From the NCBI GenBank assembly GCA_041484785.1, contig JBGPIH010000001.1, positions 7,258-71,257 of the forward strand: DNA of 64,000 nt. Reading direction: 5' to 3'. A program made the position numbers and the translations under genes. The notes below the pieces were generated by a model, which did no database searches, was not told the DNA's origin, and was given only the letters and a program-made list of their open reading frames with translations. Below, one piece after another: positions 4,340 through 42,252 of the stretch; position 1 is the stretch's first letter, and the number at the start of each line of letters is the position of its first letter. This stretch comes from Candidatus Limnocylindria bacterium (lineage in GTDB: Bacteria; Chloroflexota; Limnocylindria; Limnocylindrales; CSP1-4).

Positions 4340-4564
4340 ATGACCGCTGAGACGACGACGGCCGCCGGGGTCCGCTTCCCGGTGGAGGGCATGACCTGCG
4401 CCTCGTGCGTGAACCGCATCGAGGGGTACCTGCGCAAGACCGAAGGCGTCGTCGAGGCGAACGTCAACCTCGCGACGGAGACCGCATCAGTACGCTTCGA
4501 CCCGTCGGCCGTCGATCTCGACGGGCTGCGGGCTGCGGGCCGCGGTGGAGGCCGCGGGCTATGA
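4340..4564 (+). CDS. Heavy-metal-associated (HMA) domain, CopZ-like; probably first HMA repeat of CopA separated by a +1 frameshift
   Basis: [17 protein letters not shown]...VRFDP is an HMA fold with the MxCxxC motif. It is near-identical to the HMA domain inside the downstream ATPase. Its frame is lost at 4530..4545 by one extra base, or a 7-nt unit, in gggctgcgggctgcgggcc. Confidence 0.7.
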
Positions 4565-19874: not shown

Positions 19875-20555
19875 ATGAGCGAGGCGACCCGTGTCCTCGT
19901 CATCGACGACGATCCGAAGATCCGGACGGTCGTCCGTCGCGGCCTTGCCTATGAGGGCTACCGCGTGGTCGAGGCGGCCTCGGGCGAGGAGGGCCTGGAG
20001 AAGGCCCGCGAGCATCTGCCTGACCTCGTGGTCCTCGACATCATGATGCCCGGCATCGACGGTCTCGAGGTGACCCGTCGGCTGCGCGCTGCCGGTGACG
20101 AGGTGGCGATCCTCATGCTGACGGCGCGCGACGAGGTCAAGGACCGGGTCGAAGGGCTGGAGAACGGTGCCGACGATTACCTCGTCAAACCGTTCAGCTT
20201 CGAGGAGCTCCTCGCCCGTGTTCACGCGCTGCTCCGTCGCCGGGCCGCTCCGTCAGGCGAGGTGCTGCGGTTTGCCGACCTCGCGCTCGATGTCGACGCA
20301 CGCGAGGCGAGCCGGGCAGGGCGAACGATCGACTTGACGACGACCGAGTTCAGCCTGCTGCTGCTGCTGCTGCGCCACCCGCGCAAGGTGCTGACCCGCG
20401 ACGTGATCATGGAGCACGTCTGGTCGTATGACTTCGAGGGCGAGTCGAACGTCCTCGAGGTCTACGTTCGGTACCTGCGCAACAAGCTCGAGGCCAGTGG
20501 CGAGCCCCGCCTCATCCACACGATCCGCGGCGCGGGCTACGTCCTCAAAGAGTGA
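19875..20555 (+). CDS. OmpR-family response regulator (TCS 1)
   Basis: REC domain ([11 protein letters not shown]...[14 protein letters not shown]) plus winged-helix C-terminus. Confidence 0.9.
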
Positions 20556-21961
20556 GGCCTGTTTCCCGACGACTTTCGATCCGGGCCCGGCTCGCATTCA
20601 TCTATACCGGGCTCCTCGCGGCGGCCCTCGTCGCATTCGGCTCGGGAATGTATCTCGTCCTGCGCGCGCAACTCGAATCCTCGTTCAACGCTGGTCTCCT
20701 GGCGAACGCCGAACATGCGGCAGGGGCATTTGCCCAGGACACCGACGCCAGCGGTCGCCTGCGCCCGACTGGGCGCCTGATCACGCAGTTTGCCTCAACC
20801 GGCGGACGGGTCGTTGTCCTCGACGCCGGTGGCACCGAGCTCGCTGACTCGGCCCCGGCCGGCAGTCCCGCGCTATCAATCGGCCCCGAGGACCTCGCGG
20901 CCGCGGATCGTCATGGCCAGGTCATCAGTGAGTTTGCCGCAGGCGGTGACGTGCTTCGCCTGACCGTCGAGCCCGTCAACCTCCCGGACGGCAGCCTAGT
21001 GGGATACGTGGCCTGGGCGGACTCCACCCGCTCACTCCGCGACCTCCTGACCACGGTGAGTGTCGCCCTCGTCTTCGGCGGCGCTGCGGTCATCGGACTG
21101 GCGCTCGTCGGCGGCCTGGTCCTGGCACGGCGAGCCCTGGCTCCGGTCTCAGACGTCACCGAGACCGCCCGAGCGATTTCCCTGTCGGGCGATTTCGCGG
21201 CGCGCGTGGAAGCAGGTCGACCGGGCGACGAGGTCGGCGAGCTGGCGGTCGCGTTCAACGAGATGCTCGGCGCGCTCGAACAGAACCACCAGGCTTTGCA
21301 GCGCTTCCTCGGCGATGCATCTCACCAGCTCCGCACTCCACTCACGACCATCCGCGCCAACCTCGACCTCGCGGCACGGTCGGACCTGCCCGTGGGGGAA
21401 CGGGAAGCGATCCTGTCCGATGCGCGTGACGAGGCCGAGCGGATGGGCAGGCTGATCGGCGATCTCCTGTCGCTCGCCCGGGCGGAGTCCGGCGCTCGAC
21501 TGGAATTCCGTCCCGTCGAACTGGACGCCCTGCTGGTCGAGTCCGTCCGTCGCCAGCGCCAGGCGGCGCAGCACGTCCGGATGAGCGTGGCCACCGTGGA
21601 GCCGGCGGTCGTTGATGGCGACCGGGACCGGCTGCGTGAGCTGTTCGGGATCCTCCTCGACAACGCCGCGCGTTATACACCGGACGGCGGGACCGTCGTC
21701 GCGGGGCTCGTGGTGCGGAATGGGCGCGCCATCACCAAGGTCGAGGACACGGGCATCGGCCTCGATGCCGCCGATCGTGATCGGCTCTTCGAGCGCCTCT
21801 ACAGGGGTACGCGCGCACGCGAGATGCGGCCGTCAGGGACCGGGCTCGGCCTCGCGATCGCAAGCTGGATCGTCGAGTCGCACGCGGGAACGATCGAGCT
21901 GGCCAACCGGCCCGAGGGAGGCACGACGGTGGAAGTCACCCTGCCCCTGCGCCAGCCATGA
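20552..21961 (+). CDS. Sensor histidine kinase (TCS 1)
   Basis: Two TM, HAMP, H-box SHQLRTPLT, HATPase_c with G boxes. GTGA overlap with the upstream response regulator. Confidence 0.85.
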
Positions 21962-22659
21962 CCGCGACGCGGGTCCTCCTGGTGGACGATGAGGCGCCCA
22001 TCATCGAGCTCGTCCGCGGCTATCTCGAGCGCGAGGGCATGGACGTGATCGAGGCCTCCGACGGGCGGGTCGGACTGGAGCTCATCCGCGAGCGAGCGCC
22101 AGACGTCGTCGTGCTCGACGTCATGCTCCCCGGCATCGATGGTTTCGAGGTCCTCCGCCGCGCACGTGAGTTCTCGGACGCCTACGTGATCATGCTGACG
22201 GCCCGCGCCGAGGAGATCGACCGGATCGTCGGCCTGTCGGTTGGCGCCGACGATTACCTTGTCAAGCCGTTCTCGCCGCGAGAGCTCGTCGCGCGCGTCA
22301 AGGCACTCCTGCGCCGTCCGCGAGCTGCCCGCCGCGAGGGTGACGGCGGGGTCGTCGATCGCGGTGATCTCGTGATCGACACGGGCCGACGGCTGGTGAA
22401 GGTCGACGGAGCGCCCATCGCCCTCACGACGATCGAGTTCGACCTCCTGCTCGTCCTCGCGGACGAGCCCGGGATCGTGCTCGGCCGGCAGCGTCTGCTC
22501 GACCGCGTGTGGGGCATGGACTTCGTGGGCGACGACCACGTCGTCGACGTGCACCTCGGAAACCTGCGCCGAAAGCTCGGCGAGGATGCCGTTGCCCCGA
22601 GGTTTATCGAGACCGTCCGGGGCGTCGGCTACCGACTACGCGAGGACAACCCAGAATGA
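21958..22659 (+). CDS. OmpR-family response regulator (TCS 2)
   Basis: REC domain plus winged helix. ATGA overlap with kinase 1. Confidence 0.9.
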   Translation: MTATRVLLVDDEAPIIELVRGYLEREGMDVIEASDGRVGLELIRERAPDVVVLDVMLPGIDGFEVLRRAREFSDAYVIMLTARAEEIDRIVGLSVGADDYLVKPFSPRELVARVKALLRRPRAARREGDGGVVDRGDLVIDTGRRLVKVDGAPIALTTIEFDLLLVLADEPGIVLGRQRLLDRVWGMDFVGDDHVVDVHLGNLRRKLGEDAVAPRFIETVRGVGYRLREDNPE

Positions 22660-23759
22660 GACGGGTTCGACGGCTGGGCATGCGCCTGCTCCTCGCGAAC
22701 ATCGTTGTCATCGCGGTCGGAAGCGTCACGCTCTTCCTGACGGTCGGTCTCGTGGCGCCCGGCGCGTTCGACGCGGCGATGGGCCATGCCATGAACGGTA
22801 CCGGCGGCATGGACGAGATGATGGGCGATCTCGTCCGGGCGGCCTTCCACGACGCCATCCAGACATCGATCCTCCTCGCCGTGCTGGCCGCATCGGTCGC
22901 CGCGGTCGTCGTGAGCGTGGCCTTGTCCGCGCGGTTGTCGAGGCCGATCAGCCGTCTGGCTCAGGCGAGTCGAAGGATCGCCGCGGGCCGGTACGCCGAG
23001 CGAGTCCCCGTGACATCCGAGGACGAGATCGGCGAGCTGGCCGACTCGTTCAACACGATGGCCGCGTCACTCGAGACGACCGAGCGACGCCGGCTGGAGC
23101 TCGTGGGGGACGTGGCCCACGAGCTTCGGACGCCGCTCACGACGCTGGATGGCTATCTCGAAGGGCTCGAGGACGGAGTCATCCAGCCGCGCGAAGCGAC
23201 CTGGACGCTGCTCCGTAGCGAGACCGCTCGGATGGCACGTCTTGTCAACGATCTCCAGGAGCTCTGGCGGGCCGAGGCTAAGCAGCTGCCGCTCACCATC
23301 GAGCCGATCGACGTCGGCGCCATGGCCGCCGCCGCGGTGGACCGGTACTCGGCCGTCGCCAGCGAACGCGCGGTCCAGCTCCGGCTCGATGCGACCCAGG
23401 CTCCACCGGCTCGGGCTGACCGCGAGAGACTCACGCAGGTCGTGGACAACCTGCTCAGCAACGCTGTCCGCTACACAGCCGAAGGCACGACGATCACCAT
23501 CGGTGTCCGGGGCGACGATGAGACCGTGACGCTCTCGGTCGCCGATCAGGGACCCGGTCTCACAGAAGAGCAGCGCGCCAAGGTCTTCGAGCGCTTCTAT
23601 CGGATCGACCCGTCGCGCTCGCGAGCGCTGGGCGGATCGGGGATCGGCCTGGCGATCGCCAAGGCCCTCGTCGGGCTCATGGATGGGCGGATCTGGGCGG
23701 AGAGCGAGGGCGAGGGACGCGGAGCAACGTTCCGGGTGTCGCTACCCCGGACCCGATAG
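22656..23759 (+). CDS. Sensor histidine kinase (TCS 2)
   Basis: TM, HAMP, H-box AHELRTPLT, HATPase_c. ATG at 22656 overlaps the response regulator stop (ATGA). The track ORF starts spuriously at 22509. Confidence 0.85.
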   Translation: MRRVRRLGMRLLLANIVVIAVGSVTLFLTVGLVAPGAFDAAMGHAMNGTGGMDEMMGDLVRAAFHDAIQTSILLAVLAASVAAVVVSVALSARLSRPISRLAQASRRIAAGRYAERVPVTSEDEIGELADSFNTMAASLETTERRRLELVGDVAHELRTPLTTLDGYLEGLEDGVIQPREATWTLLRSETARMARLVNDLQELWRAEAKQLPLTIEPIDVGAMAAAAVDRYSAVASERAVQLRLDATQAPPARADRERLTQVVDNLLSNAVRYTAEGTTITIGVRGDDETVTLSVADQGPGLTEEQRAKVFERFYRIDPSRSRALGGSGIGLAIAKALVGLMDGRIWAESEGEGRGATFRVSLPRTR

Positions 23760-23782: not shown

Positions 23783-23974
23783 TTACGAGTCGACCGCTGA
23801 GGACTGGCGCCCGACCTCCGGTCGAGCCCAGCGCTCCGGTTCCTCGTTGAATGTCTCGGCGCAGACGCTCTCGCAGAAGTAATACCTCGTGCCCGAGTAG
23901 TCGACGGCGATGGCAGTCGCCGGGTCGACCTCCATGTCGCAGACCGGGTCGATAGCGCGCGTCGTTGTCGCCAT
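23783..23974 (-). CDS. Small YHS/TRASH-domain protein (63 aa)
   Basis: DPVCDMEVD...YYFCSESC motif. Confidence 0.75.
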   Translation of the reverse strand: MATTTRAIDPVCDMEVDPATAIAVDYSGTRYYFCESVCAETFNEEPERWARPEVGRQSSAVDS

Positions 23975-24235
23975 GAACGGAACTCCTTCAATGATCGGCC
24001 GGCTCGCTGACCGGCGGTGGGCTGCGTTGTGCTGGAAGGTTCGCGGACCGTCCTGATAGCCACCTGAGGATCAGCTGGGAACCTGCTGAAGGGATCGCCG
24101 ATCGGGCCTTGGCGGAAGCCCGCTCTTCTTGATCAGAACTTGAACTTGGCGGGCACGATCGCTTGAGGTCCGGTCCCCACCATGATCCCTGTCAGGCGTC
24201 GAACAGTGCGGCTGGCGATCACGGAGGAAACGCCA

Positions 24236-24457
24236 ATGATGACCGGCATCGGCTGGGACATGGGCCTGGGCGGCTGGCTGTGGATGGTCGTAGCGATCGT
24301 CCTCGTCGTCGTGATCGTCTGGGCGTTCGTCTCCGCCGTCTCGACACGAGACCGCCCGCCGGTCGAAGACGCCGCGCAGATCCTGAAGGCGCGCTTCGCC
24401 CGGGGCGAGATCAGCGAACCGGAATACGAGCAGGCACGTCGCCTGCTCGGCATCTGA
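24236..24457 (+). CDS. Small membrane protein with C-terminal SHOCT domain
   Basis: GGAGGA SD 8 nt before the ATG at 24236. TM helix WLWMVVAIVLVVVIVWAFV, then SHOCT-like ILKARFARGEISEPEYEQARRLLG. Confidence 0.6.
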   Translation: MMTGIGWDMGLGGWLWMVVAIVLVVVIVWAFVSAVSTRDRPPVEDAAQILKARFARGEISEPEYEQARRLLGI

Positions 24458-24475
24458 ACAGTAAGGAGATTTGAC

Positions 24476-24811
24476 ATGGCATCGAAGCGAATTGGACTGA
24501 TCGCCAGCGGCGTCCTTGCCGGTGGCCTGCTGCTCGGAACCGCCGGACTGGTCGCGGCCCAGGATCCGACCGCCTCGCCGTCGGCGGGGCCGACCTCAGC
24601 GGGATCGTCCGGGATGATGGGCGGGTCGGGCATGATGGGCGGCGCCGGGATGATGGGCGGCGCCGGGATGATGGGCGGCTCGGGCATGGGCCAGATGGAC
24701 GCCGCCGACATCCAGGCGATGACCACGATGCATCAGTCGATGACGGCGAACGGCACGTGTGACCCGGCTCAGATGAGTCAGCTTCACGCGCAAATGCATT
24801 CGAGCCGCTAA
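24476..24811 (+). CDS. Secreted methionine-rich repeat protein (putative Cu(I)-binding)
   Basis: AAGGAG SD and signal peptide. Repeat run SGMMGGSGMMGGAGMMGGAGMMGGSGMGQM plus further Met/His (MTTMHQSM, AQMHS). The antisense ORF 24133..24726 was rejected. Confidence 0.65.
   Translation: MASKRIGLIASGVLAGGLLLGTAGLVAAQDPTASPSAGPTSAGSSGMMGGSGMMGGAGMMGGAGMMGGSGMGQMDAADIQAMTTMHQSMTANGTCDPAQMSQLHAQMHSSR
24605..24700 (+). repeat. Tandem 15-bp repeats (x4-5) encoding GMMGG
   Basis: gggatgatgggcggc units read directly in the sequence. Confidence 0.8.
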
Positions 24812-24888
24812 ACCCTCTTCCTCGGTAGTGGCGCCGCGGCCCAAATGGCTCGGCGCTCTTCCGTGTCCTGATCCAATGAGGAGATCCC

Positions 24889-25314
24889 GTGCCAACGTCG
24901 ACCGCGTACACATTCCGAGCAACGATCCCGTTTTCTATCGAACAGACCCGCGCTCGCGTCGAGGCGGCGCTCAAGGCCGAGGGCTTCGGCGTCCTGACCG
25001 AGATCGATGTCGCGGCGACGCTCCAGGCGAAGCTCGGGCTGGAGTTTCCCCCGTATCTCATCCTGGGCGCCTGTAACCCGCGCCTCGCGCACGCTGCTCT
25101 TGAGTTCGAACCCTCGATCGGGGCCCTTCTGCCCTGCAATGTCGTCCTGCGCCAAGCCGCGGCCGCCGGGGAGACCATCGTAGAGATTCTCGACCCGGAA
25201 GTGGCGCTGGCGATCGCCGGCTCCGAGCAGGTCGCGCCGATCGCCGCCGAGGCCGCCGCCCGACTGCGACGAGTCCTCGCGGCGGTGGCCCCCGACGGAG
25301 CCGGCGCCGCGTGA
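24889..25314 (+). CDS. DUF302-domain protein
   Basis: TEIDVAATLQAKLGLEFPPYLILGACNP...LLPCNVVL is the DUF302 signature. Confidence 0.8.
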   Translation: MPTSTAYTFRATIPFSIEQTRARVEAALKAEGFGVLTEIDVAATLQAKLGLEFPPYLILGACNPRLAHAALEFEPSIGALLPCNVVLRQAAAAGETIVEILDPEVALAIAGSEQVAPIAAEAAARLRRVLAAVAPDGAGAA

Positions 25315-25377
25315 GCTGTTAGCCCGGTTTCATCCTCGGCTCATCGGACTCTCATCTCGCACGTCGAATGTGCGGCC

Positions 25378-25830
25378 ATGAAGAAGCACCGCCTCCTGGC
25401 CTCCGTCCTCGCTCTGCCGCTGCTCATCGCGGCCTGTTCGGGCTCGCCAGCCGCGCCGGCCCCCGCGTCAAGCGGGACCGCGAGCTCCCCCTCGGCAGGT
25501 GCCACGCAAACGAGCGAGGGCGGAGGGGTCACCGTCGTCGCGTCGTGGGCTGGACCGGCTGCCGGAGCGACGTTCGACGTCAAGCTCGACACGCACTCGG
25601 TGGATCTGGATGCGCTCGATCTGTCCACCGCCGTCCTGCGCAACGACCGCGGCGAGACCCTGGGCGCGCGGCCGTGGGCGGCGCCGAAGGGCGGGCACCA
25701 CCGAGAGGGCGCCCTCACCTTCGACGGCGACGCCTCGAGCTTCTTCGCCGGCGCGAAGTGGATCGAGCTGGCCCTCGCCGGCGTCGGCGACACCCCCGAG
25801 CGGACCCTCCGCTGGGCGATCGGCTCGTGA
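25378..25830 (+). CDS. Lipoprotein, unknown function
   Basis: Signal peptide plus lipobox LIAAC, Ser/Ala/Pro linker, conserved-looking GGHHREGALTFDGD. Confidence 0.6.
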   Translation: MKKHRLLASVLALPLLIAACSGSPAAPAPASSGTASSPSAGATQTSEGGGVTVVASWAGPAAGATFDVKLDTHSVDLDALDLSTAVLRNDRGETLGARPWAAPKGGHHREGALTFDGDASSFFAGAKWIELALAGVGDTPERTLRWAIGS

Positions 25831-26342
25831 CTGCGGTCGCTCGCCCCCTCCGGCCGACCCTGCCGGTCGCGCCGCGCTCGATCGTCGCCGGTCTCATCGG
25901 CGGGGCCACCCTCCTCGGTGTCTACCTTGCGATCATCAGCCTTGCCCAGGGCGTCGACCACGCGGTCGAGCAGCTCGCGACGGATGCCCTGTTCGTGGGC
26001 CTCATCGCGGCTGGCTTCGGGATCCAGATCGCGCTGTTCGCCGAGCTGCGTACGCTCGATCGACGGCATCGGGCGAGCGCCGCGGTCACCGCCGTCGGGA
26101 CCGGAACGAGCGCGGCCGCGATGCTGGCCTGCTGCGCCCATCACGTCGTCGACCTGCTGCCGCTCGTCGGCCTGTCGGCAGCGGCTGTGTTCCTGGACGC
26201 CTACAAGACCCCGCTTTTCCTCGTGGGGATCGGAATGAACCTGGTCGGGATCATTGTGATCGGCCGGCAACTCCGTCGCGCTCGTCGCGCCTGCGCGGTG
26301 GTCGATGCGGCCGCCTCGGTCCGCGTGCCCGCGGCGAGCTGA
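25827..26342 (+). CDS. Four-TM membrane protein with CCAHH motif, translationally coupled to the lipoprotein
   Basis: GTG at 25827 overlaps the lipoprotein stop (GTGA). Hydrophobic segments; MLACCAHHVVDLLP motif. The track ORF 25368..26342 is an upstream extension. Confidence 0.5.
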   Translation: MTAVARPLRPTLPVAPRSIVAGLIGGATLLGVYLAIISLAQGVDHAVEQLATDALFVGLIAAGFGIQIALFAELRTLDRRHRASAAVTAVGTGTSAAAMLACCAHHVVDLLPLVGLSAAAVFLDAYKTPLFLVGIGMNLVGIIVIGRQLRRARRACAVVDAAASVRVPAAS

Positions 26343-26493
26343 CCGGACGACGAGGGCCAAGCAGTCCGTTCGAGCGGTCTGGATCGCGATTCTTAGGACT
26401 GCCTCACGTGGCTCTCAGCCCCAGGACTGACGGTTTCTGTCAATCGTTACCCCCCACGCCGGGTCGGCATGCTGGCTGAAGGAGGCCAAGAGC

Positions 26494-26727
26494 GTGGACG
26501 TCACCAAGAAGACCCCACCGAGCGAAGCGGCCCTTGGCCGCGACGTCCGGAGCCGGGCCCTCGCGATGTGGCCCGGACTCGACCGCAAGAAGCTCACCCG
26601 CACCTGCGGCGACCCGACTCGAGTGACCCGTCTCGTCGAGCGCCGGACCGCGCTTCCGCGCGAGTCGATCCTCCGCATTCTCGAGGGTCGGGTCTCAGCT
26701 GGGGAATTGCTCAAGCGGCCCGACTGA
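26494..26727 (+). CDS. Small hypothetical protein (77 aa)
   Basis: GGAGG SD 8 nt upstream of the GTG start. Followed directly by a GC-rich hairpin terminator. Confidence 0.45.
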   Translation: MDVTKKTPPSEAALGRDVRSRALAMWPGLDRKKLTRTCGDPTRVTRLVERRTALPRESILRILEGRVSAGELLKRPD

Positions 26728-26787: not shown

Positions 26788-27467
26788 GTGAGGAAGGTAT
26801 GTGGCTGGGCCTGCGTCGCAGGGTGCCACAAGGCCCGGAAGAAGGGCCGTTCGGCAGGTCCTCATTGCGGCTGGGGCCTCCTGCGTGCTGGTTGCACTCC
26901 ACGCTCGGCCCATGCCGAGGCGTGCGTAGAAGCGGGCAGTAGCTTCGGACGCCGGTGACGACGAAGTCGAGGCCGAGCAGCGCGGCGGCGAACCAGGCCC
27001 AGGCCACGAAGCCTCCGGTCGTGAGCCACAGATTGAGGGCGAAGCAGCGCAACTGCGTGCGGGACGTCGTGGCGAGGCCGCGGCGTCGACAGATGCCAGG
27101 AGAAAAGAGTCTACCTTCGCGGCTGGCGCTTGCGATCCCAACCGATGATGAGGCCGGCACCAGTTGGAACTGGTGCACCAAGTCTCAGGCGCCGCTCACG
27201 CTGGGCTCAGCCTTCCGCTTCACGCTCGGGTGATGGACATCAGGCGCGGGCTTCAGATCCCCGTCTCCAGCCTGTGCGGTGGAGCACGGGCGACCACCAC
27301 CGAGCGCGAGCTGGCCGCGACCGACGGCGTGCTGTGCGGCTACGTATACCCGGCGACCGAGACGACTCACGTCGACTACGACCCGGCCGAGACCGACGCG
27401 TGGGTGCTCGCCCGGGTGAATCGAGCGGGCCGGGTATCAGATCGGCGCCCCCTCGAGGCCGTGATCC

Positions 27468-28118
27468 ATGGGTGACGACGACTTCGGCGGCGGGCTCTGG
27501 ATCTTGGTCGCGATCAACTCGGTGATCTTCATCGCGTTCGCGGCCAGCTTCTTTCATCCGCGGAGCGGACGAGACTGGCGGGTCATGGGCGCCTACTCGG
27601 CGTTCATCGTCGCCCTGTTCACCGAGATGTACGGCTTCCCGCTCACGATCTACGTGCTCTCGGGCTGGCTGGGCGATCGCTTTCCTGCGCTGGTCCCGTC
27701 GCACGCAGGCGGCCATCTGCTGAATGACCTCATCGGCTGGCAGGGCGACCCGCACCTGAGCCCGTTCCACCTCGCCAGCTACCTGGTCATGGGCGCCGGG
27801 TTCGTGGTACTAGCCAAGGCCTGGCCCGTGCTCTGGAAGGCCCAGCGCGAGCACCGCCTGGCCACGACCGGTCCGTATGGCTCGATCCGCCATCCGCAGT
27901 ACGTTGGATTCCTGCTGATCATGGTGGGCTTCCTGCTCCAGTGGCCCACGCTCTTGACGCTCCTGATGTTCCCGATCCTGACCTTCGCCTACAGCCGCCT
28001 CGCGATCTCGGAGGAGCGCGAGGTCCGGGCCGAGTTCAGAGTCGATTACGAGCGGTACGCGGCGACCACGCCCCGCTTCCTTCCCCATTTCAGGCATCGG
28101 CGAGTCCCGCAACCCTGA
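27468..28118 (+). CDS. Isoprenylcysteine carboxyl methyltransferase / phospholipid methyltransferase family membrane protein
   Basis: TTGPYGSIRHPQYVGFLL motif; multiple TM. Confidence 0.8.
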   Translation: MGDDDFGGGLWILVAINSVIFIAFAASFFHPRSGRDWRVMGAYSAFIVALFTEMYGFPLTIYVLSGWLGDRFPALVPSHAGGHLLNDLIGWQGDPHLSPFHLASYLVMGAGFVVLAKAWPVLWKAQREHRLATTGPYGSIRHPQYVGFLLIMVGFLLQWPTLLTLLMFPILTFAYSRLAISEEREVRAEFRVDYERYAATTPRFLPHFRHRRVPQP

Positions 28119-30749: not shown

Positions 30750-31265
30750 ATGCAGATCCGTGAGCTGGCTCGCCAGGCCGGCACGACGACGAAGGCCGTT
30801 CGGTTCTACGAATCCCAGGGGCTCATGGGCGCCCCCGAGCGCGCCGAGAATGGTTATCGCCGGTACGCCGCTGCGGACGTCGAGCGGCTCCGACTCCTGG
30901 TCGGCCTCCGCACATTGGATGTTCCCCTCGACCGGGCGGGGGAGTTGGCTGCCCTGCGTGCCGCCGGCCACTGTGAGCGAGTGTCGACCGAGCTGCGCGC
31001 GCTCATCGCTCGCCAGCGTGCGGACATCCGGCGCCACGCAGGGGAGCTCGACTTCCTGGACCGGCGTCTCGCGACCCTCGAACGGCATGTTGCGGCGGGC
31101 GATCCACCGCAGTCCGTGATCCCTCGTGGAAGGAGCATCGAAATCGCGACCTGTGATTGCTCGTGTGGGCAGTGCTGCGGATGTGACGCCTGCGGTTGTG
31201 TCTGTTCCTGCTCGAGCCACGGCAGGATGGCGGCGGGTGATCGCCATGAGCCGCGCAATGACTGA
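30750..31265 (+). CDS. MerR-family metal-responsive regulator with Cys-rich C-terminal tail
   Basis: HTH (MQIRELARQAGTTTKAVRFYESQGL), coiled-coil dimerisation region, then CDCSCGQCCGCDACGCVCSCSS. Confidence 0.85.
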   Translation: MQIRELARQAGTTTKAVRFYESQGLMGAPERAENGYRRYAAADVERLRLLVGLRTLDVPLDRAGELAALRAAGHCERVSTELRALIARQRADIRRHAGELDFLDRRLATLERHVAAGDPPQSVIPRGRSIEIATCDCSCGQCCGCDACGCVCSCSSHGRMAAGDRHEPRND

Positions 31266-31614
31266 GCCATCCCGGCCGCGCGTCGAGCTGCTCTGGTTCC
31301 AGGACTGCCCGAACCACCCGGCGGCCAGGGTGCTCCTCGACGAACTCCTCGACGAGCTCGCGCCGGGCACGGCAGTCCAGGAGATCGACGCCACCGAGCC
31401 CGCTGTCGCGCAGCGGCACCGCTTCCCCGGCTCGCCGACGATCCGGATCGACGGCCGGGACATCGATCCCTCTTACCAGGATCCAGGTGACTACACGCCC
31501 CGTTGCCGGCTGTACCGGACGGCCGAGGGGCTTCGAGGCCTTCCGGAGCGGGCCTGGATCGAGGCGGCGCTCCTGGCCAGCGTCCGCTCGATCGGCGGAC
31601 GCTTCTCGGAGTAG
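31258..31614 (+). CDS. Small thioredoxin/glutaredoxin-fold-like protein (CPNHP motif)
   Basis: VELLWFQDCPNHP ... FPGSPTIRIDGRDI resembles the Grx active-site strand and the proline-containing strand. Overlaps the merR stop by 8 nt. Confidence 0.5.
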   Translation: MTEPSRPRVELLWFQDCPNHPAARVLLDELLDELAPGTAVQEIDATEPAVAQRHRFPGSPTIRIDGRDIDPSYQDPGDYTPRCRLYRTAEGLRGLPERAWIEAALLASVRSIGGRFSE

Positions 31615-31874: not shown

Positions 31875-32159
31875 TCAGCCGGCGCGGAGGGACTCGACGT
31901 GGATCAGGCCGTCGTTTGCAGACGTCGCAAGGTCGGTGTGGCCATGCTCGTCCTCGCAGCAGGATGCCGGGCCGCCCATCAGGAAACGGTCAGGGTCGAG
32001 CGCGAACCGTGAAACGCAGCCGGGACACTTGAACCGAAGGCTCTGGCAATCGAGGCGTGCGGTCACGCCCTCGCCGGCCGCAATGTCCTTCCCGCAGACG
32101 ATACAGCTCGCGGCGGCTTCGGCCGCCGAATCGACGATCACGAGATCCTGGATGCTCAT
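31875..32159 (-). CDS. Small Cys-rich protein (zinc-ribbon/TRASH-like)
   Basis: GAAGGA SD before ATG 32159. CIVCGK-x15-C-x7-CPGC plus CCEDEHGH. Confidence 0.45.
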   Translation of the reverse strand: MSIQDLVIVDSAAEAAASCIVCGKDIAAGEGVTARLDCQSLRFKCPGCVSRFALDPDRFLMGGPASCCEDEHGHTDLATSANDGLIHVESLRAG

Positions 32160-32739: not shown

Positions 32740-33900
32740 TCAGGACTGGACGTTGATGACCATGAGCAGGCCGCCCGGCTCGACGTCGTCGTTGGTGGCG
32801 TGGTGGACGATGTGGCAGTGGAGCGCCCAGGTCCCCGGGTTCTCGGCCGTGAACTCGACGTCGAACCGCTCACCCGGGTGGACCGGGATGGTGTCCTTGG
32901 TCAGTTGGGCGGCGGCAGGCACCGGGAAGCCGTCGGTGGCGACGATCTTGAACCCCGAGCCATGGAGGTGCATCGGGTGCTCGAACTGTCCGGCCCCCAC
33001 AAATCGCAGGCGGACGCGATCGCCCTTCTTGACCGTGATGGCGGGGATGTCGGGATAGGTCTTGCCGTTGATCGTGAAGAAGTTGGGTTCGCCCATCGAG
33101 GGCATCGCCGGGTAGCTCACGCCGTCGACGACGCGCCATTCGTTGAGGATCAGCGTCGCGTCGACGTCGGGCTTGATCGCGTTCCAGTTCCTGGGATCGA
33201 CGATCAGCCCGCCGAACAGCCCGACGTTGATCTGGGTGTCGGTGTCGAAGTGCGAGTGGTACATGAAGGTGCCGGCCGGGTTGGCCACGAACTCATAGGT
33301 GAACGTCTCGCCCGGCATGACCGGCTTCTGCGAGATCTCCGGCTGGGCGACGCCATCCATGTTCGAGGGCACGAACTGGCCATGCCAGTGGATGCTCGTC
33401 GGCGTCGTGAGCTCGTTCTTGAACACGATCCGGATCCGGTCGCCCTCGGTGACCCGGATGAGCGGCCCAGGGACCGTGCCGTTGTAGGTCAGCGCGGTGA
33501 CCTGGGTGGCCGAATTGATCTTCCAGAAGACGGACTTCGCCGTCAGTTGAAAGACTTTCGTCTTGCCGTCGAGCGTGAACGGCAGAGGCTGAAGACCCGC
33601 CGTCTCGGTGGCGGGTACGGCGCCATCGGTCGGGACCGGCTCGTCGGTCATGAGGCCGCCGGTTGTGTCCATACCGGACATCCCCGTGGAGGGCGCGCCG
33701 GATGGCGCGAGCGAGCTCGGACTCAGGCTCGGCGAGCCGCCCATGTCCATCCCGGGCATATCCGAGCTCATCGGTGTGGGCGAGGAGGCCGGCGAGGCGA
33801 CCGCCGAAGCAGCCGGTGAGGCGGCCGGCGCACACGCGGCCACGGCGACCGAGAGCGTGACCAGTGCGGCAATTGCGGTTTGGCGATTCTGCACAGCCAA
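32740..33900 (-). CDS. Multicopper oxidase (two-domain, CopA/laccase-like) lipoprotein with Met-rich N-terminal region
   Basis: Cu-binding motifs HWHG, HSH, HPMHLHG, HCHIVHH. Lipobox VAACAP. MSSDMPGMDMGG...MSGMD Met motifs. Confidence 0.9.
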   Translation of the reverse strand: MAVQNRQTAIAALVTLSVAVAACAPAASPAASAVASPASSPTPMSSDMPGMDMGGSPSLSPSSLAPSGAPSTGMSGMDTTGGLMTDEPVPTDGAVPATETAGLQPLPFTLDGKTKVFQLTAKSVFWKINSATQVTALTYNGTVPGPLIRVTEGDRIRIVFKNELTTPTSIHWHGQFVPSNMDGVAQPEISQKPVMPGETFTYEFVANPAGTFMYHSHFDTDTQINVGLFGGLIVDPRNWNAIKPDVDATLILNEWRVVDGVSYPAMPSMGEPNFFTINGKTYPDIPAITVKKGDRVRLRFVGAGQFEHPMHLHGSGFKIVATDGFPVPAAAQLTKDTIPVHPGERFDVEFTAENPGTWALHCHIVHHATNDDVEPGGLLMVINVQS

Positions 33901-35605: not shown

Positions 35606-36805
35606 GTGGACAACCGAGCAGCGCGACGAAAGGCAGCCGCCGCGGCGCGGCGCACGACGAATCGATCGGGGCGGGCGCCGGACGCGGCGACGAGGGCCAG
35701 CACCGGGCGCGGCGACGCGGGCGGGTTAACCACGAGTCCGCAATCCAATCCGTCCGAGGCTGTCGAACCGGAGGCGCTCGTCGTCAGCCACTGGTTCGAC
35801 TCCGGTGACGAAGGTGAATCGTACGCCGCGACCGTTCGGTTGACGGGACGCCGCGTCGACATCCACGGGCTGCCCGGGCCCCATGACACGTTCGTCCAGG
35901 AAGACAAGATCGAGGCGATCGTGCCCGGCAGCGGACCGGTGTCGCTTACCTCATGGGTCTACGGGCTCGAGCCAGGCGATTGGACCGTCGACGCGGAGCT
36001 GTTGCGGTCACATCGTGATCCGGGCCGAGGGAGGCGAACATCCGCCGAGCCGGTCCTTCCCGCGACCTGGTCGTGGCGCCGCTGGGCGCTTTCGACCGGC
36101 TCCTCGGAGGCGGTGAAGACACGCTGGGCGATGGTGGCGCCGTTGGCACGAATGCCCGGGGTCCTCCCCGGTAGCTGGCCAGCCCTTGGCGCCCTCGGGG
36201 CCGTCGTCGCTTTGATCACCCAGGCGGCGATTCTCGAGCACGAGAAGGCCGCTGTTGGCCAATCGCTCCTGGTGTCCCTGATCGCCCTCCTATCCGGGAT
36301 GCTCGGGGCGAAGCTCTGGTACGCGGTGCTGCACCCTGGCCCATGGCGACAGGCGATCCTCGGAGGCTGGGCCGTCGACGGGTTTCTGGTGGTGGCCCCC
36401 GTCGTAGCGGTCGCGGCACTGGTGGCCTGGAATCTGCCCGTCGGTGCCTTTCTCGACGCCGCGGCACCGGGCCTCTTCTTCGGGGTGGCGATCGGGCGCG
36501 TCGGGTGCTTCTTCACCGGCTGTTGCGCCGGTCACATCACCAATTCACGCTGGGGCATCTGGTCCTCCGATCGGAGGGTGGGAGCTCGTCGGGTTCCTGC
36601 CCAGCTTCTTGAATCCACCGCCGGATTGGTGATCGGAGGCCTGGCGGCGACGGCAGTCCTTGGCCACCTGCCACGTCCCGACGGCGCCGTATTCGTGGCT
36701 GCATTCGTGGCGTATCTCCTCGTCCGGCAGGCCCTCCTCCGGGTTCGAGCGGAATCGCGCCAGTTCTCGTGGCGTCGGAGCGTCGCGGTTGCCGAGCGGG
36801 CGTGA
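35606..36805 (+). CDS. Lgt-like (prolipoprotein diacylglyceryl transferase family) membrane protein with N-terminal soluble extension; start uncertain
   Basis: C-terminal ~230 aa with FFGVAIGRVGCFFTGCCAGH resemble the Lgt signature GR[IL]GNF[IL]N.E, but Asn/Asn/Glu are replaced by Cys/Thr/Cys. The N-terminal ~150 aa look like a folded domain rather than frame noise. Confidence 0.5.
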   Translation: MDNRAARRKAAAAARRTTNRSGRAPDAATRASTGRGDAGGLTTSPQSNPSEAVEPEALVVSHWFDSGDEGESYAATVRLTGRRVDIHGLPGPHDTFVQEDKIEAIVPGSGPVSLTSWVYGLEPGDWTVDAELLRSHRDPGRGRRTSAEPVLPATWSWRRWALSTGSSEAVKTRWAMVAPLARMPGVLPGSWPALGALGAVVALITQAAILEHEKAAVGQSLLVSLIALLSGMLGAKLWYAVLHPGPWRQAILGGWAVDGFLVVAPVVAVAALVAWNLPVGAFLDAAAPGLFFGVAIGRVGCFFTGCCAGHITNSRWGIWSSDRRVGARRVPAQLLESTAGLVIGGLAATAVLGHLPRPDGAVFVAAFVAYLLVRQALLRVRAESRQFSWRRSVAVAERA

Positions 36806-38289: not shown

Positions 38290-38967
38290 TCAGACGAGAG
38301 CCCGACCGCCTGCCTGGCTTCGGCGCAGACGCAGTGTCGTGGCAGCGATCACAAGGAGGCCGATTGCTACGCTCAGCCCGGCGAGGGTACCCGCGGCGAA
38401 CTCCCAGAACGCGGTCGGATAGAGCTGCACGATCCGCTGGGTGGTCGGGTCGAATTGCCAGCCGCCGGCCGGGAAGACGATCTCGTGGAATAGCGTGAAC
38501 AACGCATCGAAGGCGACAACGAGCCCGATCCCGACGGCCGAGAAGATGAGCACGAGCCCGGTCGCGCCCCGCCGGACCGCGCGGAGCGCATCCGGTCCGC
38601 TCATCCCCCGGGTCGTGATGATGACCGCGATCGCGCCCGCCAGCACAAGCCCGAAGAACCCATAGACAACGACACGGACGTCCTGCATGTGAGCCGCCTC
38701 GACCGGTCCGTAGAACGGCGGGCCTCCTGGTGTCGCGGCAAATGTGAACGAGCCTGGTCCAATGAGCAGCTCCTGGACAGACAGCTCAGAGGCTCGTTGG
38801 GCGACCTCGTGCGGCACGCCCAGGATGCCGGCTGAGCCCCCGATCTCGAGGCCGAGGTTCATCACTGGCGGAAGCAGCAGAATGACCGCGGCCGTGCCGA
38901 CGATGACGATTGCGGTGCCGACCCCGGCGATGGTACGCCAAGGTCGGCTGGAGTGGTTGGCAGCCAC
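38290..38967 (-). CDS. DUF1461-family integral membrane protein
   Basis: FTLFHEIVFPAGGWQFDPTTQRIVQLYP motif. Confidence 0.6.
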   Translation of the reverse strand: MAANHSSRPWRTIAGVGTAIVIVGTAAVILLLPPVMNLGLEIGGSAGILGVPHEVAQRASELSVQELLIGPGSFTFAATPGGPPFYGPVEAAHMQDVRVVVYGFFGLVLAGAIAVIITTRGMSGPDALRAVRRGATGLVLIFSAVGIGLVVAFDALFTLFHEIVFPAGGWQFDPTTQRIVQLYPTAFWEFAAGTLAGLSVAIGLLVIAATTLRLRRSQAGGRALV

Positions 38968-39026: not shown

Positions 39027-39212
39027 TCAGTGTCCAGCGTGCCCGCTGTGCTCGTCCTTCGGATGGCCGTAGCTGTGCGGGTCCTTGACGAACGTCTCGT
39101 GGCAGGCATTGCTACAGAAGTAGAACGTCCGCCCTTCGTGCTCTTCCGTGGCGGCGGCGTCCTCGGGGCGGATTTCCATGCCGCAGACCGGGTCCTTCAC
39201 CTTGTCAGCCAT
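39027..39212 (-). CDS. Small YHS/TRASH-domain protein with His-rich C-terminus
   Basis: GGAGG SD before ATG 39212. DPVCGMEIRPED...YFCSNACHETF, ending HPKDEHSGHAGH. The track ORF extends upstream to 39734 without a stop, but that stretch is Arg-rich low complexity. Confidence 0.8.
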   Translation of the reverse strand: MADKVKDPVCGMEIRPEDAAATEEHEGRTFYFCSNACHETFVKDPHSYGHPKDEHSGHAGH

Positions 39213-39720
39213 CTTGGCGACCTCCTTGTGGGATGAGTGGATCAGTCCGGTACGCCGACCAACGGCCGGCCTCCGGTTCCGTGCCGAATCCGTGCCACCA
39301 CGGCCTGAGCGGTGGAACGGCCGGGCCGTCTGCGCGAGGTCGGGGAGGAGCAGCTGTGCCACGTCGAGCGAGCCGTCCTCGAAGCCACGCCGGGCAGCGG
39401 CCATGTAGATCCGCCAGGTTCGGTTGTGGAAGCGAATGGCGGCAAGGTCGCGAGCCCGCGAATGGCGCCGTCCGGAGAGGCGGGCCCGGCGTCGAAGGTC
39501 ACGCGCCGGCCTCGAACCGCGGCGCAATTCGACACCGAGGCGGGCCAGCCGCGGCAGGTCCAGGCCGAGGCGTCGCAGCTTGAACGATCGGCCGGCGTCG
39601 ATGGCCGTCCAGATGTCACCCGCGGGGAAAGCTCGACCGACGAGCGCGAGAGATTCCTGGGCCATCGCCGCGCAACGCCCGACGCGGCCGAGCGGGGACG
39701 CCGATGCTGGCGCGAGAGCC

Positions 39721-42252
39721 TCACTCGGCGCCATAGCGGCGGATTCCTTCGAGCTTTGTGCGCTTCAGGAGCAGCGCGTTGACGGCTACCAGGAAGGAGC
39801 TGCCGGCCATGCTGATCGCCGCGATCTCCGGCCGGAGGACGAAGCCGAAGGCGGGGTAGAAGAGGCCCATCGCGATCGGGAAAGCGACCGAGTTGTAGCC
39901 CACCGCCCAGAAGAGGTTCTGGCGCATCTTGCGGACGGTCGCCCGGCTGAGCGCGATGGCGCCGAGCACGTCGATCGGGTCGCTCTTCATGAGGACGATG
40001 TCGGCAGTCTCCACGGCGACGGCGGTGCCGGCCCCGATCGCGATGCCGACGTCCGCCTGGGCGAGCGCCGGGGCGTCGTTGATCCCGTCACCAACCATGG
40101 CCACGAGCTTGCCGCTCGCCTGGATCTCCTTTACCTTGTCGGCCTTCTGGCCGGGCAGAACCTCGGCGAAGACGATGTCGAGTCCGAGCTCGGCGGCGAT
40201 CCGATCGGCGGTCGCCTGGTTGTCGCCGGTCAGCATCGCGACCTGGATGCCGAGGTTGTGCAGGCGCTCGATCGTTTCCTTCGCGCTCGGGCGGACCGCG
40301 TCGGCGATGGCGATCAGGCCGCCGGCCTCGCCGTCGACCGCGACTCGCACGACCGTGCGACCGGCGCCTTCCAGCTCATCCGCTCGGGACCCCAGCCTGC
40401 CGAAGTCAATGCCGCGGTCGCGCATGAGCTTGGCGTTCCCGACCAGGACCGAGCGGCCGTCGACCTTTGCCTCGAGCCCGTGGCCAGGGACGGCCTGGAA
40501 GTCGGTCGCGTCGACGAGCGTGAGCTTGCGCTCCTTCGCCGAGTCGACGACCGCCTGGGCGAGCGGATGCTCGCTGGAGCCCTCGGCCGACGCCGCCAGT
40601 CGAAGGACCTCATCCTCGCTGACCGGGTTTCCCGCGCCCACGAGCTCGACGACTCGCGGCTGTCCGACGGTCAGCGTGCCGGTCTTGTCGAAGATGACCG
40701 CGCCGATCTTGGACGCCTGCTCCAGGGCGGTTGCGTTCTTGAACAGGATCCCGTTGAGCGCGCCGAGACCGGTGCCCACCATGATCGCCGTCGGCGTGGC
40801 CAGGCCCAGGGCATCCGGGCAGGCGATGATCACGACCGTGATCGCGAGCGTGAGGGCGAAGATGAACGTCGACCCACCGATCGTCAGCCAACCGAAGAAG
40901 GTCACCAGGCCGAGGATCACGGCCGCGGCGACCAGCCACTGGGCGGCGCGGTCGGCGAGTCGCTGGGCCGGCGCCTTCGAGTTCTGGGCTAGCTGGACAA
41001 GCTGCACGATCTGGGCCAGCGCGGTATCGGCGCCGACCTTGGTCGCCTTGAACCGGAATGTCCCGGTTTTGTTGATCGACGCGCCGATGACGTTCGAACC
41101 GACCGTCTTCTCGACCGGCACGCTCTCCCCGGTGATCATCGATTCGTCGACGCTCGATTGGCCATCGACGATGACGCCATCGACCGGGACCTTGTCGCCG
41201 GGCTTGATCAGGACGATGTCGTCGATCACGACCTCTGCGGTCGCGATCTCAACGGGCTCGCCGTTGCGGATGACGGTGGCCTTCGGCGGCGTGAGGTCGA
41301 GGAGCGCCTTCATCGCATTTGATGCGCCCGCCCGGGCCCGCATCTCCAGCCAATGCCCGAACAGGACGAACGTGAGCAGGACGACCGCCGCCTCGTAGAA
41401 GACCTCGCCCTCGAACAGGAACGTCGCGGCGACGCTGAACAGGTAGCCGCTGCCGACCGACAGCGCGACGAGGACCGACATGTCGAGCGTCCGGTTGCGG
41501 AGCGCCCGATACGCGCCGACGAAGAACATCTTCCCGCTCCAGGCGACGGCGGGCGTGGCGAGCAGGAAGGCCAGGATGTCCTTGTCGATCCCGAACGGAG
41601 TGCCGAGGCGGATGCTGAAGACCTCGGTCGCGAGCGGCGAGTAGAGGAAGATCGGGACGGCCAGGATGAACGCCACGATGAAGCGGTTCCGCATGTCGCG
41701 GACCATTTCCTCCATCGTCATCCCGCCGCCATGCCCCATGCCGTGAGCCATCTGGGCCATCTCGCCCTGGACGGGTGCGCCCGCGGCCGCCGCTGCCATC
41801 GCGTGGCCGGCGTGCTCGTCATGGGCCGCAGGCGCCGCCTTCGCCGGAGCCGGAGCCGGAGCGGCCATCGTGTGGCCGGCGTGCGCATGATCGGCTGCGC
41901 CGGGCGTCTCCGCCTTCGCCGGGGCCGGGGCGGCCATCGCGTGGCCGGCGTGTTCGAGCGGCGGCGCGTGTGCGGCACCATGTGCAACCGTGCTGCCGAT
42001 GACGGCCGTCTGCTCGTCCTGGCAGAGATGGCACGGGACGACCTCGCCACCGCAGCGGCAACCGAAGCGCTCGATCAGCGCCCGGACGTCATCCGCGGAC
42101 AGTGCCGTCTCGTCGTAGTGGACGGTCACCGTCTGGGAGACAGGGTTGGCCTCCGCTTGCTCGACACCGCGCTGCCGCTGGAGGAATGCCTCGAGACCCG
42201 TGGCGCTGCTGGCCCGTAGGAGCCCTCCTGCTTCAAAGACTCTGCCCGTCAC
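39721..42252 (-). CDS. P1B-type heavy-metal ATPase (CopB-like) with His/Met-rich N-terminus and CPD transmembrane motif
   Basis: [25 protein letters not shown] and MAGSS motifs. TM6 reads [13 protein letters not shown]; the gat codon was verified on the reverse strand near 40800. N-terminal repeats [13 protein letters not shown] x3 plus a Met/His cluster. Confidence 0.9.
41800..41975 (-). repeat. Three imperfect ~60-bp tandem repeats encoding the His/Met-rich units ([15 protein letters not shown])
   Basis: Repeated ggccatcg(c/t)gtggccggcgtg units read in the sequence. Confidence 0.7.

Follow-up and report, generated by a model that had tools for sequence, protein, structure and literature searches.

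In a 64,000-nucleotide stretch of DNA from Candidatus Limnocylindria bacterium, a soil member of the Chloroflexota (contig JBGPIH010000001.1, called the window here), five forward-strand genes, g1 to g5, lie inside an island of copper-resistance genes. We found that the conserved core of this group consists of the last two genes, which encode a lipoprotein (g4) and a membrane protein with four transmembrane (TM) helices (g5), and that the five-gene order is not a conserved unit. Adjacency and gene fusions indicate that g4 and g5 form a true functional unit, and this pair, whichever way it passes metal, is very probably a copper relay across the cytoplasmic membrane; its more specific form, a two-part relay leaning outward, we put forward with moderate confidence. 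What is new is the g4-g5 pair together with its HMA and YHS fusions, rather than the methionine-rich protein encoded by g2. An earlier note on this DNA, which had presented all five genes as a coherent periplasmic copper-buffering or delivery unit, is partly supported. Gene models, motifs, topology, linkage, fusions and copper-rich neighbourhoods are reported below as observed, and from them we infer all that is said of function, including metal binding, copper specificity, transport and its direction.

Conservation of the g4-g5 pair

The window has a G+C content of 68.8%, and its nearest relatives are metagenome-assembled Chloroflexota tagged Limnocylindria or Limnocylindrales. The five open reading frames (ORFs; 24182–26342, + strand) show a coding-type G+C content at third codon positions (GC3; 0.81–0.89), and the NCBI, JGI and Logan gene callers agree on the same five models on independent contigs, in line with the five co-directional genes described before. 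The claim that each has its own Shine-Dalgarno sequence had to be corrected, as none is recognisable for g4. An antisense ORF of 339 aa (25341–26360) was rejected as a high-GC artefact, because frame-specific GC3 and the existence of homologues both favour the + strand genes. A scan for regulatory signals found no promoter-like site and no Rfam family; terminator-like sites were few and near the chance rate, and short repeats were taken as chance.

To assess conservation, we retrieved 85 related loci and placed relatives of every gene in them using phmmer, with counts given for 82 loci, comprising 32 close ones (Limnocylindria-type, with g5 at ~68% identity or more) and 50 distant ones. The g4 gene is adjacent to and co-directional with g5 in 32/32 close and 40/50 distant loci (72/82 in total), usually overlapping it, and Bacillota, Actinomycetota and Rubrobacter are represented among the distant loci that carry both. 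By comparison, the complete order of SHOCT, Met-rich, DUF302, g4 and g5 genes occurs in 9/32 close and 0/50 distant loci, the order SHOCT, Met-rich, g4 and g5 without DUF302 at that position in 11/32 and 0/50, and about eight further close loci hold g4-g5 only. Within 5 kb of g5, SHOCT genes are found in 12/50 distant loci, and DUF302 and Met-rich genes are nearly absent from this set (2/50 each). In the close loci, DUF302 lies within 5 kb in 14/32 and g2 is present in 22/32 (at most 2/50 distant loci). The genes g1, g2 and g3 are accessories of the Limnocylindria lineage, and the proposed coherent unit survives as the g4-g5 linkage but not as a fixed order of five; the description "scattered and unlinked in related genomes", named in the earlier note as the outcome that would speak against it, applies in part to g1–g3 and not to g4-g5. 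In Kouleothrix-type loci (L003, L061), SHOCT, Met-rich and DUF302 genes are again found as a trio, in unchanged order, ~2 kb upstream of a YHS-g5 fusion, the Met-rich member being a DUF305 protein with GMMGG repeats; because of this recurrence, the five-gene grouping is partly founded, as one of loose companions.

Fusions and topology

In a census of 150 g5 family representatives at 50% identity, 105 were g5 alone, followed by HMA-g5 (21), g5-g4 (17), YHS-g5 (3), g5-HMA (2), and single examples of HMA-HMA-g5-g4 and HMA-g5-g5. All 18 representatives that combine g5 with a g4-type domain in one chain (18/150) contain an extra, fifth hydrophobic segment between TM4 and the g4 domain, and no extra segment is present in 46/49 N-terminal and 2/2 C-terminal HMA or YHS fusions. 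This pattern, which agrees with the lipobox of g4 and with the distribution of charges, argues that the HMA and YHS domains are cytoplasmic and that g4 is located outside.

The g5 membrane protein

The stop codon of g4 overlaps the GTG start codon of g5 as GTGA (25827–25830), and g5 carries four TM helices with the sequence CCAHH at residues 102–106, confirming the earlier description of a GGHHREG-bearing lipoprotein coupled to a four-TM CCAHH protein. In the family alignment, Q67, M99, C102, C103, H105, P112 and G115 are invariant, and H106 and N138 are conserved at 90% or more, giving the invariant motif M-x-A-C-C-x-H-H. Lysine plus arginine counts, read by the positive-inside rule, place both ends of the chain and the TM2-TM3 loop inside, and the N- and C-termini are accordingly predicted to be cytoplasmic. 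With this topology, a Cys2His2 cluster (C102, C103, H105, H106), flanked by M99 and D109, falls within the cytoplasmic third of TM3, and a second polar cluster (H45, E48, Q49, D53) is found at the outer face between TM1 and TM2. An AlphaFold2 model (predicted local distance difference test, pLDDT, 79) has four long helices and no extra domain.

The g5 family has 831 clusters at 50% identity, a profile search returned 3,177 at 90%, and the family is present in at least 574 species-representative genomes across all major Chloroflexota classes; a search for plasmid carriage gave no match. In the source databases, unfused g4 and g5 relatives are all named "hypothetical protein", except for one g4 match with an unrelated label, and the names of fused g5 proteins refer only to the HMA or YHS domain. 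We found no paper describing the motif or the pair in the literature searched for the motif and for SHOCT, DUF302 and YHS combinations. No Pfam, NCBIfam or PDB sequence relative of g5 was detected, and Foldseek against the PDB (best E 3.5) yielded no structural relative. Similarly, there was no match to MerT, MerC or MerF (Pfam E up to 0.1; 66 family members at E up to 0.01), and none to CopD (PF05425) for the query or for 66 family members. Membership of the cation diffusion facilitator (CDF) family (PF01545/TIGR01297) was considered and rejected, since the query scored 19.7 bits against a Pfam cut-off of 26.6, hhalign gave a probability of 0.5% against the CDF protein of the window, and the family profile found no PDB chain; sub-threshold matches to Cation_efflux occur in 9/66 family members (best E 2.2e-4).

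The g4 lipoprotein

A lipobox, LIAAC, at residues 16–20, sought with the pattern [LVI][ASTVI][GAS]C and with C20 invariant and A19 conserved at 90% or more in 32 homologues, marks g4 as a predicted lipoprotein, and the mature protein is predicted to be an Ig-like beta-sandwich that serves as the extracytoplasmic partner of g5. Its motif GGHHREG forms part of a strongly conserved set of histidines, H73, H107 and H108 being kept in 99–100% of 79 distinct domains, and the protein lacks Cys beyond the lipobox. No Pfam or NCBIfam match was found at E up to 0.1, including CopC (PF04234) and PCuAC (PF04314), and there was no PDB sequence match at E up to 10. The ligand motifs of CopC, PCuAC and CrdA, for which we looked for a Met-rich loop, H(M)x10Mx21HxM, or an N-terminal His plus a second His, are not those of g4, where H73, H107, H108 and Asp/Arg are conserved and no Met column is. 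For all five proteins, the earlier statement that none is a named copper-resistance component stands.

Neighbourhood evidence for copper

A Pfam scan of 261 unassigned neighbours within 3.5 kb, drawn from 48 distant loci, was topped by Cupredoxin_1 (17) and E1-E2 ATPase (13), followed by SAM methyltransferases (12) and cytochrome b (5), and no mercury-resistance family appeared in either top-25 list of neighbour families. HMA domains are encoded within 5 kb of g5 in 33/82 loci, and YHS domains in 38/82. Several loci place other metal proteins where g4 would be expected or directly beside g5: in L003 and L061, which lack g4, the end of YHS-g5 is overlapped by a Met-rich anchored multicopper oxidase; a multicopper oxidase directly follows g5 in L003, L004 and L061; a Met-rich secreted protein overlaps the start of g5 in L080; a P1B ATPase begins 13 nt after HMA-g5 in L073; and a weakly CopD-like gene adjoins HMA-g5 in L005. 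This suggests that the outside partner of g5 is interchangeable, and the combined evidence points to copper, with silver as a likely mimic, as the best-supported substrate of g5 and g4.

Accessory genes g1, g2 and g3

The SHOCT and DUF302 identities proposed for g1 and g3 hold up. The g1 product scored 30.1 bits against the SHOCT model (Pfam PF09851; cut-off 27), the match covering residues 66–89 of the 91-aa ORF (a C-terminal, 28-residue model), and the same label is given in outside gene calls. Translation most likely begins at 24236 rather than 24182, at an ATG with GGAGGA 8 nt upstream that is used by two of three outside gene calls. The resulting protein of 73 aa has one TM helix (residues 17–35), as described before, and its orthologues share the N-terminal stub MMxGxxWxMGxGGWLWM; the predicted arrangement is a Met/Gly/Trp-rich stub outside and a cytoplasmic SHOCT domain. 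Soluble SHOCT proteins adjoin HMA-g5 in Thermoflexus-type loci (L062 8768–8995; L073 4004–4228), where they have Cys/His-rich ends (MCCMMH...HSQHSE... and ...HAAHGGHGC), which suggests that SHOCT proteins of these islands may bind metal themselves.

The g2 product combines a signal peptide, four [S/A]GMMGG repeats and a conserved C-terminal motif, M..MH..M...G.CDP..MQ..H.Q. Its repeat (Tandem Repeats Finder score 119, 90% matches) encodes a six-residue unit, so that the 15-bp GMMGG period reported earlier is in fact 18 bp ([S/A]GMMGG, ~4 copies, 24609–24679). In the orthologues, both the repeat number (2–10) and the unit (GMMGG, GMMNGQ, GMSGG) vary and the reading frame is kept; furthermore, the identical 111-aa protein is present on four contigs from three independent samples, which refutes an assembly artefact. 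Neither g2 nor 15 orthologues matched a Pfam family at E up to 1, and none could be assigned to PcoE/SilE, CopM/DUF305 or CusF. A reading of g2 as a reduced DUF305/CopM protein was discarded, as hhalign paired only the signal peptide and the low-complexity Met/Gly repeats. GMMGG-type tracts precede a DUF305 domain, a cupredoxin, a SHOCT protein and multicopper oxidases in related loci, and g2 is plausibly linked to copper. A secreted protein of L041 (3929–4492) joins GMMGG-type repeats to a C-terminal cupredoxin-like domain with the type-1 copper ligand pattern H...C..H....M, which we take to be reminiscent of CopI-type proteins. The g2 product would hold Cu(I) outside the cell, in keeping with the Cu(I) binding expected earlier from its Met-rich repeats. 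Periplasmic buffering fits g2 at best; the core looks like a trans-membrane relay, with a cytoplasmic end.

The g3 product matches the full DUF302 model (Pfam PF03625, positions 1–63; 86.2 bits against a cut-off of 23, E 1.4e-24) and, because it has neither a signal peptide nor a TM helix, is taken to be cytoplasmic; the literature searched gave no established function for DUF302. All three accessory genes are probably co-regulated by the two-component systems located upstream.

The copper island around the five genes

The copper island itself was confirmed from the ATPases, oxidase, YHS and TRASH genes of the window (Table 1). Two P1B ATPases (4545–7022 and 39721–42252) score over the TIGR01511 copper cut-off; no HMA domain was detected in the second, and a 235-aa protein with a C-terminal YHS domain (39027–39734, - strand) overlaps its start region. 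A BlaI/CopY-like repressor with an M56 peptidase is also present. The multicopper oxidase of the window is a lipoprotein with a VAAC lipobox, a Met-rich linker and no Tat motif, and is a candidate client of the relay. Both this oxidase and that of L003 (6672–7916) are short (386–414 aa), of two-domain size, and the oxidases of these loci are lipoproteins or signal-anchored, with long Met-rich linkers (e.g. MSSDMPGMDMGG) and without a Tat motif. The divergent YHS protein next to g1 may give metal to g5, or accept it, on the cytoplasmic side.

Table 1 Coordinates of g1–g5 and of neighbouring features in the window
Feature	Coordinates	Strand	Description
Two tandem OmpR-type two-component systems	19875–23759	+	Pfam; upstream of the five genes
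YHS protein	23783–23974	-	63 aa, divergent; Pfam YHS E 6e-13
g1	24236–24457 (longest ORF from 24182)	+	73 aa, SHOCT, one TM
g2	24476–24811	+	111 aa, secreted Met-rich protein
Tandem repeat inside g2	24609–24679	+	18-bp period, 3.9 copies
g3	24889–25314	+	141 aa, DUF302
g4	25378–25830	+	150-aa lipoprotein
g5	25827–26342	+	171-aa four-TM membrane protein
x77	26494–26727	+	77-aa basic ORF directly 3' of g5; gene-called on independent contigs
TRASH-domain protein	31875–32159		small
Multicopper oxidase	32740–33900	-	Pfam Cu-oxidase domains; two-domain size

The two tandem two-component systems are the likely regulators of the five-gene region, and their upstream arrangement is kept in close loci. 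The best NCBIfam match of the first histidine kinase (HK1) is the heavy-metal sensor kinase family TIGR01386, at a score under its cut-off. The second (HK2; 22656–23759, + strand) has an extracytoplasmic loop of only ~37 residues with five Met and two His (AMGHAMNGTGGMDEMMGDL...FHD), a candidate minimal loop for sensing copper or silver. Downstream of g5 lie Nramp and CDF transporter genes. The earlier placement of the five genes between two-component systems and transporters is right in that both flanks are present, but the YHS gene and three further genes intervene, the latter, between g5 and Nramp, being x77, an HMA-like ORF and an ICMT-like gene. The x77 ORF, immediately 3' of g5 in 10/32 close loci, has no Pfam or NCBIfam match, and its membership in the module is uncertain. 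Next to it lies a 103-aa ORF without a family match (27164–27475, + strand), which may have a degenerate HMA-like fold, as it matches the HMA part of an HMA-g5 fusion found in L058. Its last 8 nt are shared with the start of an ICMT/PEMT-type membrane methyltransferase gene (27468–28118, + strand), and ICMT-like genes are found within 5 kb of g5 in 11/82 loci.

Lipoprotein-processing genes also occur in the island, namely an extra prolipoprotein diacylglyceryl transferase (LGT; 35606–36805, + strand) and a lipoprotein intramolecular transacylase (Lit; 38290–38967, - strand), and LGT genes lie within 5 kb of g5 in 20/82 loci, directly downstream in three. This parallels the lit2-lgt2 operon of Listeria and Enterococcus, which is induced by copper (PMC8275575). 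Elsewhere in the window, a ResB-like cytochrome c biogenesis protein (7852–10029, - strand) carries an N-terminal SAM-dependent methyltransferase domain (residues ~78–190) in one ORF, a fusion that looks unusual, and adjoins a TlpA-like thioredoxin and a Ccm cluster. Between the CDF and TRASH-domain genes, a 162-aa protein (31126–31614, + strand) matches the NCBIfam "DF family (seleno)protein" at 92 bits (cut-off 70).

Discussion

Our results describe a pair of proteins that appears to work in a manner analogous to CopC/CopD or MerP/MerT while being unrelated to them in sequence. Like CopC-CopD/YcnJ (with YcnI), g4-g5 joins an extracytoplasmic, predicted beta-sandwich and putative metal binder to a small multi-TM protein, encoded by neighbouring genes or sometimes in one chain, in loci that are presumably copper-responsive. 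Unlike that system, the pair shows no CopC or CopD Pfam match at E up to 0.1, and g5 is often fused to cytoplasmic HMA or YHS domains. CopD has about eight TM helices, against four in g5, and lacks a Cys-Cys-x-His-His site. The MerP-MerT-(NmerA) system shares with g5 two adjacent cysteines and a following Pro within a TM helix of a small membrane protein, and, as would be the case for g4-g5, soluble metal binders act on both sides of the membrane, with an HMA domain at the inner end. However, the outside partner is an HMA protein in the mercury system and a putative three-His lipoprotein sandwich in ours, MerT has three TM helices and g5 four, the Cys pair of g5 lies in TM3 near the cytoplasm, and neither g4 nor g5 matches the MerT, MerC or MerP families of Pfam, nor does any mercury-resistance family enter the top-25 neighbour lists.

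The route CopZ-CopA-CutF-CutO (and, in eukaryotes, Atx1-Ccc2-Fet3) is alike in its cytoplasmic HMA-type donor, membrane step and outside oxidase client (PMC8456105), but the membrane step of CopA is an ATP-driven P1B pump of ~800 aa, whereas g5 has 171 aa and no ATPase, and g4 is unrelated to CutF. Helicobacter pylori CrdA binds copper by a Met-rich loop and has no His (PMC9182242), for which reason its possible likeness to g4 (identity ~10%, a match below usual significance levels) would be one of fold and setting, not of metal site. Finally, H105-x-x-x-D109 in a TM helix of g5 resembles the HxxxD metal site of CDF proteins, a resemblance at the level of the motif only; CDF proteins have six TM helices and a C-terminal cytoplasmic domain, compared with four and none in g5.

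In the mechanism that we propose, g5 would take Cu(I) at the intramembrane site of TM3 (C102, C103, H105, H106, with M99 and D109 near). On the cytoplasmic side it would trade metal with an HMA or YHS domain, which is fused to it in many species and which, in this genome, the divergent YHS protein probably supplies in trans. On the outside, it would trade metal with the lipid-anchored g4 through the three invariant histidines. Outward transfer, which we prefer slightly over inward transfer, would deliver cytoplasm-derived Cu(I) to the Sec-exported multicopper oxidase and cupredoxins, or dispose of it. We lean towards this direction on account of the Sec-exported oxidases and cupredoxins and of the resistance-island setting: because the oxidases are Sec-type lipoproteins without a Tat motif, they should need metallation outside the cell, and outward supply has a precedent, since maturation of the CutO oxidase depends on the CopZ-CopA export route (PMC8456105). 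For the same reason, copper import to load a Tat-exported oxidase in the cytoplasm was rejected, as the oxidases are Sec-type lipoproteins or anchored and lack the twin-arginine motif.

Several observations weigh against an outward copper relay. There is no energy-coupling domain in g5, and with thiols at the inner site and only His at the outer one, metal would rather run passively inwards. Neither HMA nor YHS domains are specific to copper. Outside the cytoplasm, Cu(I) is usually bound by Met or Cys, neither of which is conserved in g4, and three His with an Asp would suit Cu(II), Zn or Ni as well. Furthermore, the TM3 segment bearing CCAHH is the least confident helical part of the g5 model (pLDDT 50–64), 10/50 distant loci have no g4 beside g5, and the 80 genome loci are the most query-like of at least 574, so that the sampling is biased. 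The relay role of both families is deduced from sequence throughout.

The same features can be read as a copper uptake unit, in which the histidines of g4 capture copper, the Cys2His2 site of g5 passes it on and HMA or YHS takes over. The missing energy-coupling module fits such a reading, as does the series of ligands from His-only outside through Cys/His in the inner leaflet to the CxxC of HMA, which runs downhill for Cu(I); the CopD-like gene beside HMA-g5 in L005 and the precedents of CopC-CopD (YcnJ) for copper and MerP-MerT-NmerA for Hg(II) point the same way. Copper-capturing CopC and YcnI proteins use His and Asp, not Met, so that a His-based g4 would be in keeping with this role too. 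Nevertheless, we consider uptake rather unlikely: exporters accompany the unit in its resistance island, the Sec-exported oxidases to which it is coupled require copper outside the cell, an oxidase that replaces the outside partner in some loci is more naturally a recipient than a donor, and importing copper under copper stress needs a special rationale. That g1–g3 vary in composition even among close relatives, that a kinase and response regulator are often found beside g4-g5 (with convergent pairs directly downstream in L037, L041 and L048), that the HK2 loop is rich in Met and His, and that g5 is very small for a transporter and lacks a structural relative in the PDB would all suit a more modest role, with no joint mechanism past co-regulation and with g4-g5 as a copper sink or buffer, or as a reporter to the histidine kinases. 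This is improbable, however, as metal-binding domains fused on both sides of the membrane (HMA-HMA-g5-TM-g4) and conserved polar residues inside it (Q67, D109, N138) are hard to explain for a sink, and a histidine kinase lies within 5 kb in only 14/50 distant loci.

HMA, YHS and a TM motif of Cys-Cys followed by Pro are known too from systems for mercury, cadmium and zinc and from proteins of the DsbD/CcdA type, which, together with the weak CDF-model matches in 9/66 family members and the Ccm, ResB and TlpA-like thioredoxin genes of the window, could point to another soft metal (Hg, Ag, Cd, Zn) or to a thiol-redox or cupric-reductase protein using the Cys pair. We judge this highly improbable, given that cupredoxins, multicopper oxidases and copper-type ATPases dominate the neighbours with no mercury-resistance family in the top-25 lists, that g4 cannot accept a disulfide relay without Cys past its lipobox, that g5 has no heme or Fe-S motif, and that CDF homology is unsupported by hhalign (0.5%) and by the profile search of PDB sequences.

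A bolder extension of the outward relay, which we regard as speculative, is that g5 founds a new class of small, four-TM, probably oligomeric Cys/His Cu(I) translocators that work without ATP, as a dedicated route for the metallation of Sec-exported cuproenzymes; HMA or YHS domains would be its donors in the cytoplasm, and its partner outside could be g4, a multicopper oxidase or a Met-rich protein. It is just as conjectural that this route would serve Chloroflexota and some other monoderms in parallel to, and independently of, P1B ATPases.

How bacteria supply copper to extracytoplasmic cuproenzymes and yet avoid poisoning themselves is understood only in part, and that knowledge comes almost exclusively from Proteobacteria and Firmicutes. 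Although the g4-g5 pair has no name and no entry in Pfam, NCBIfam or the PDB, it is found in at least 574 genomes, in more than 3,000 clusters and in all major Chloroflexota classes, and its fusions provide a testable wiring from a cytoplasmic HMA or YHS domain, through a putative membrane Cys2His2 site, to a His3 sandwich or an oxidase outside. If the relay is borne out, bacterial copper trafficking would gain a new membrane component, thousands of "hypothetical proteins" could be annotated, and there would be a handle on copper in the abundant, mostly uncultured Chloroflexota of soil and groundwater.

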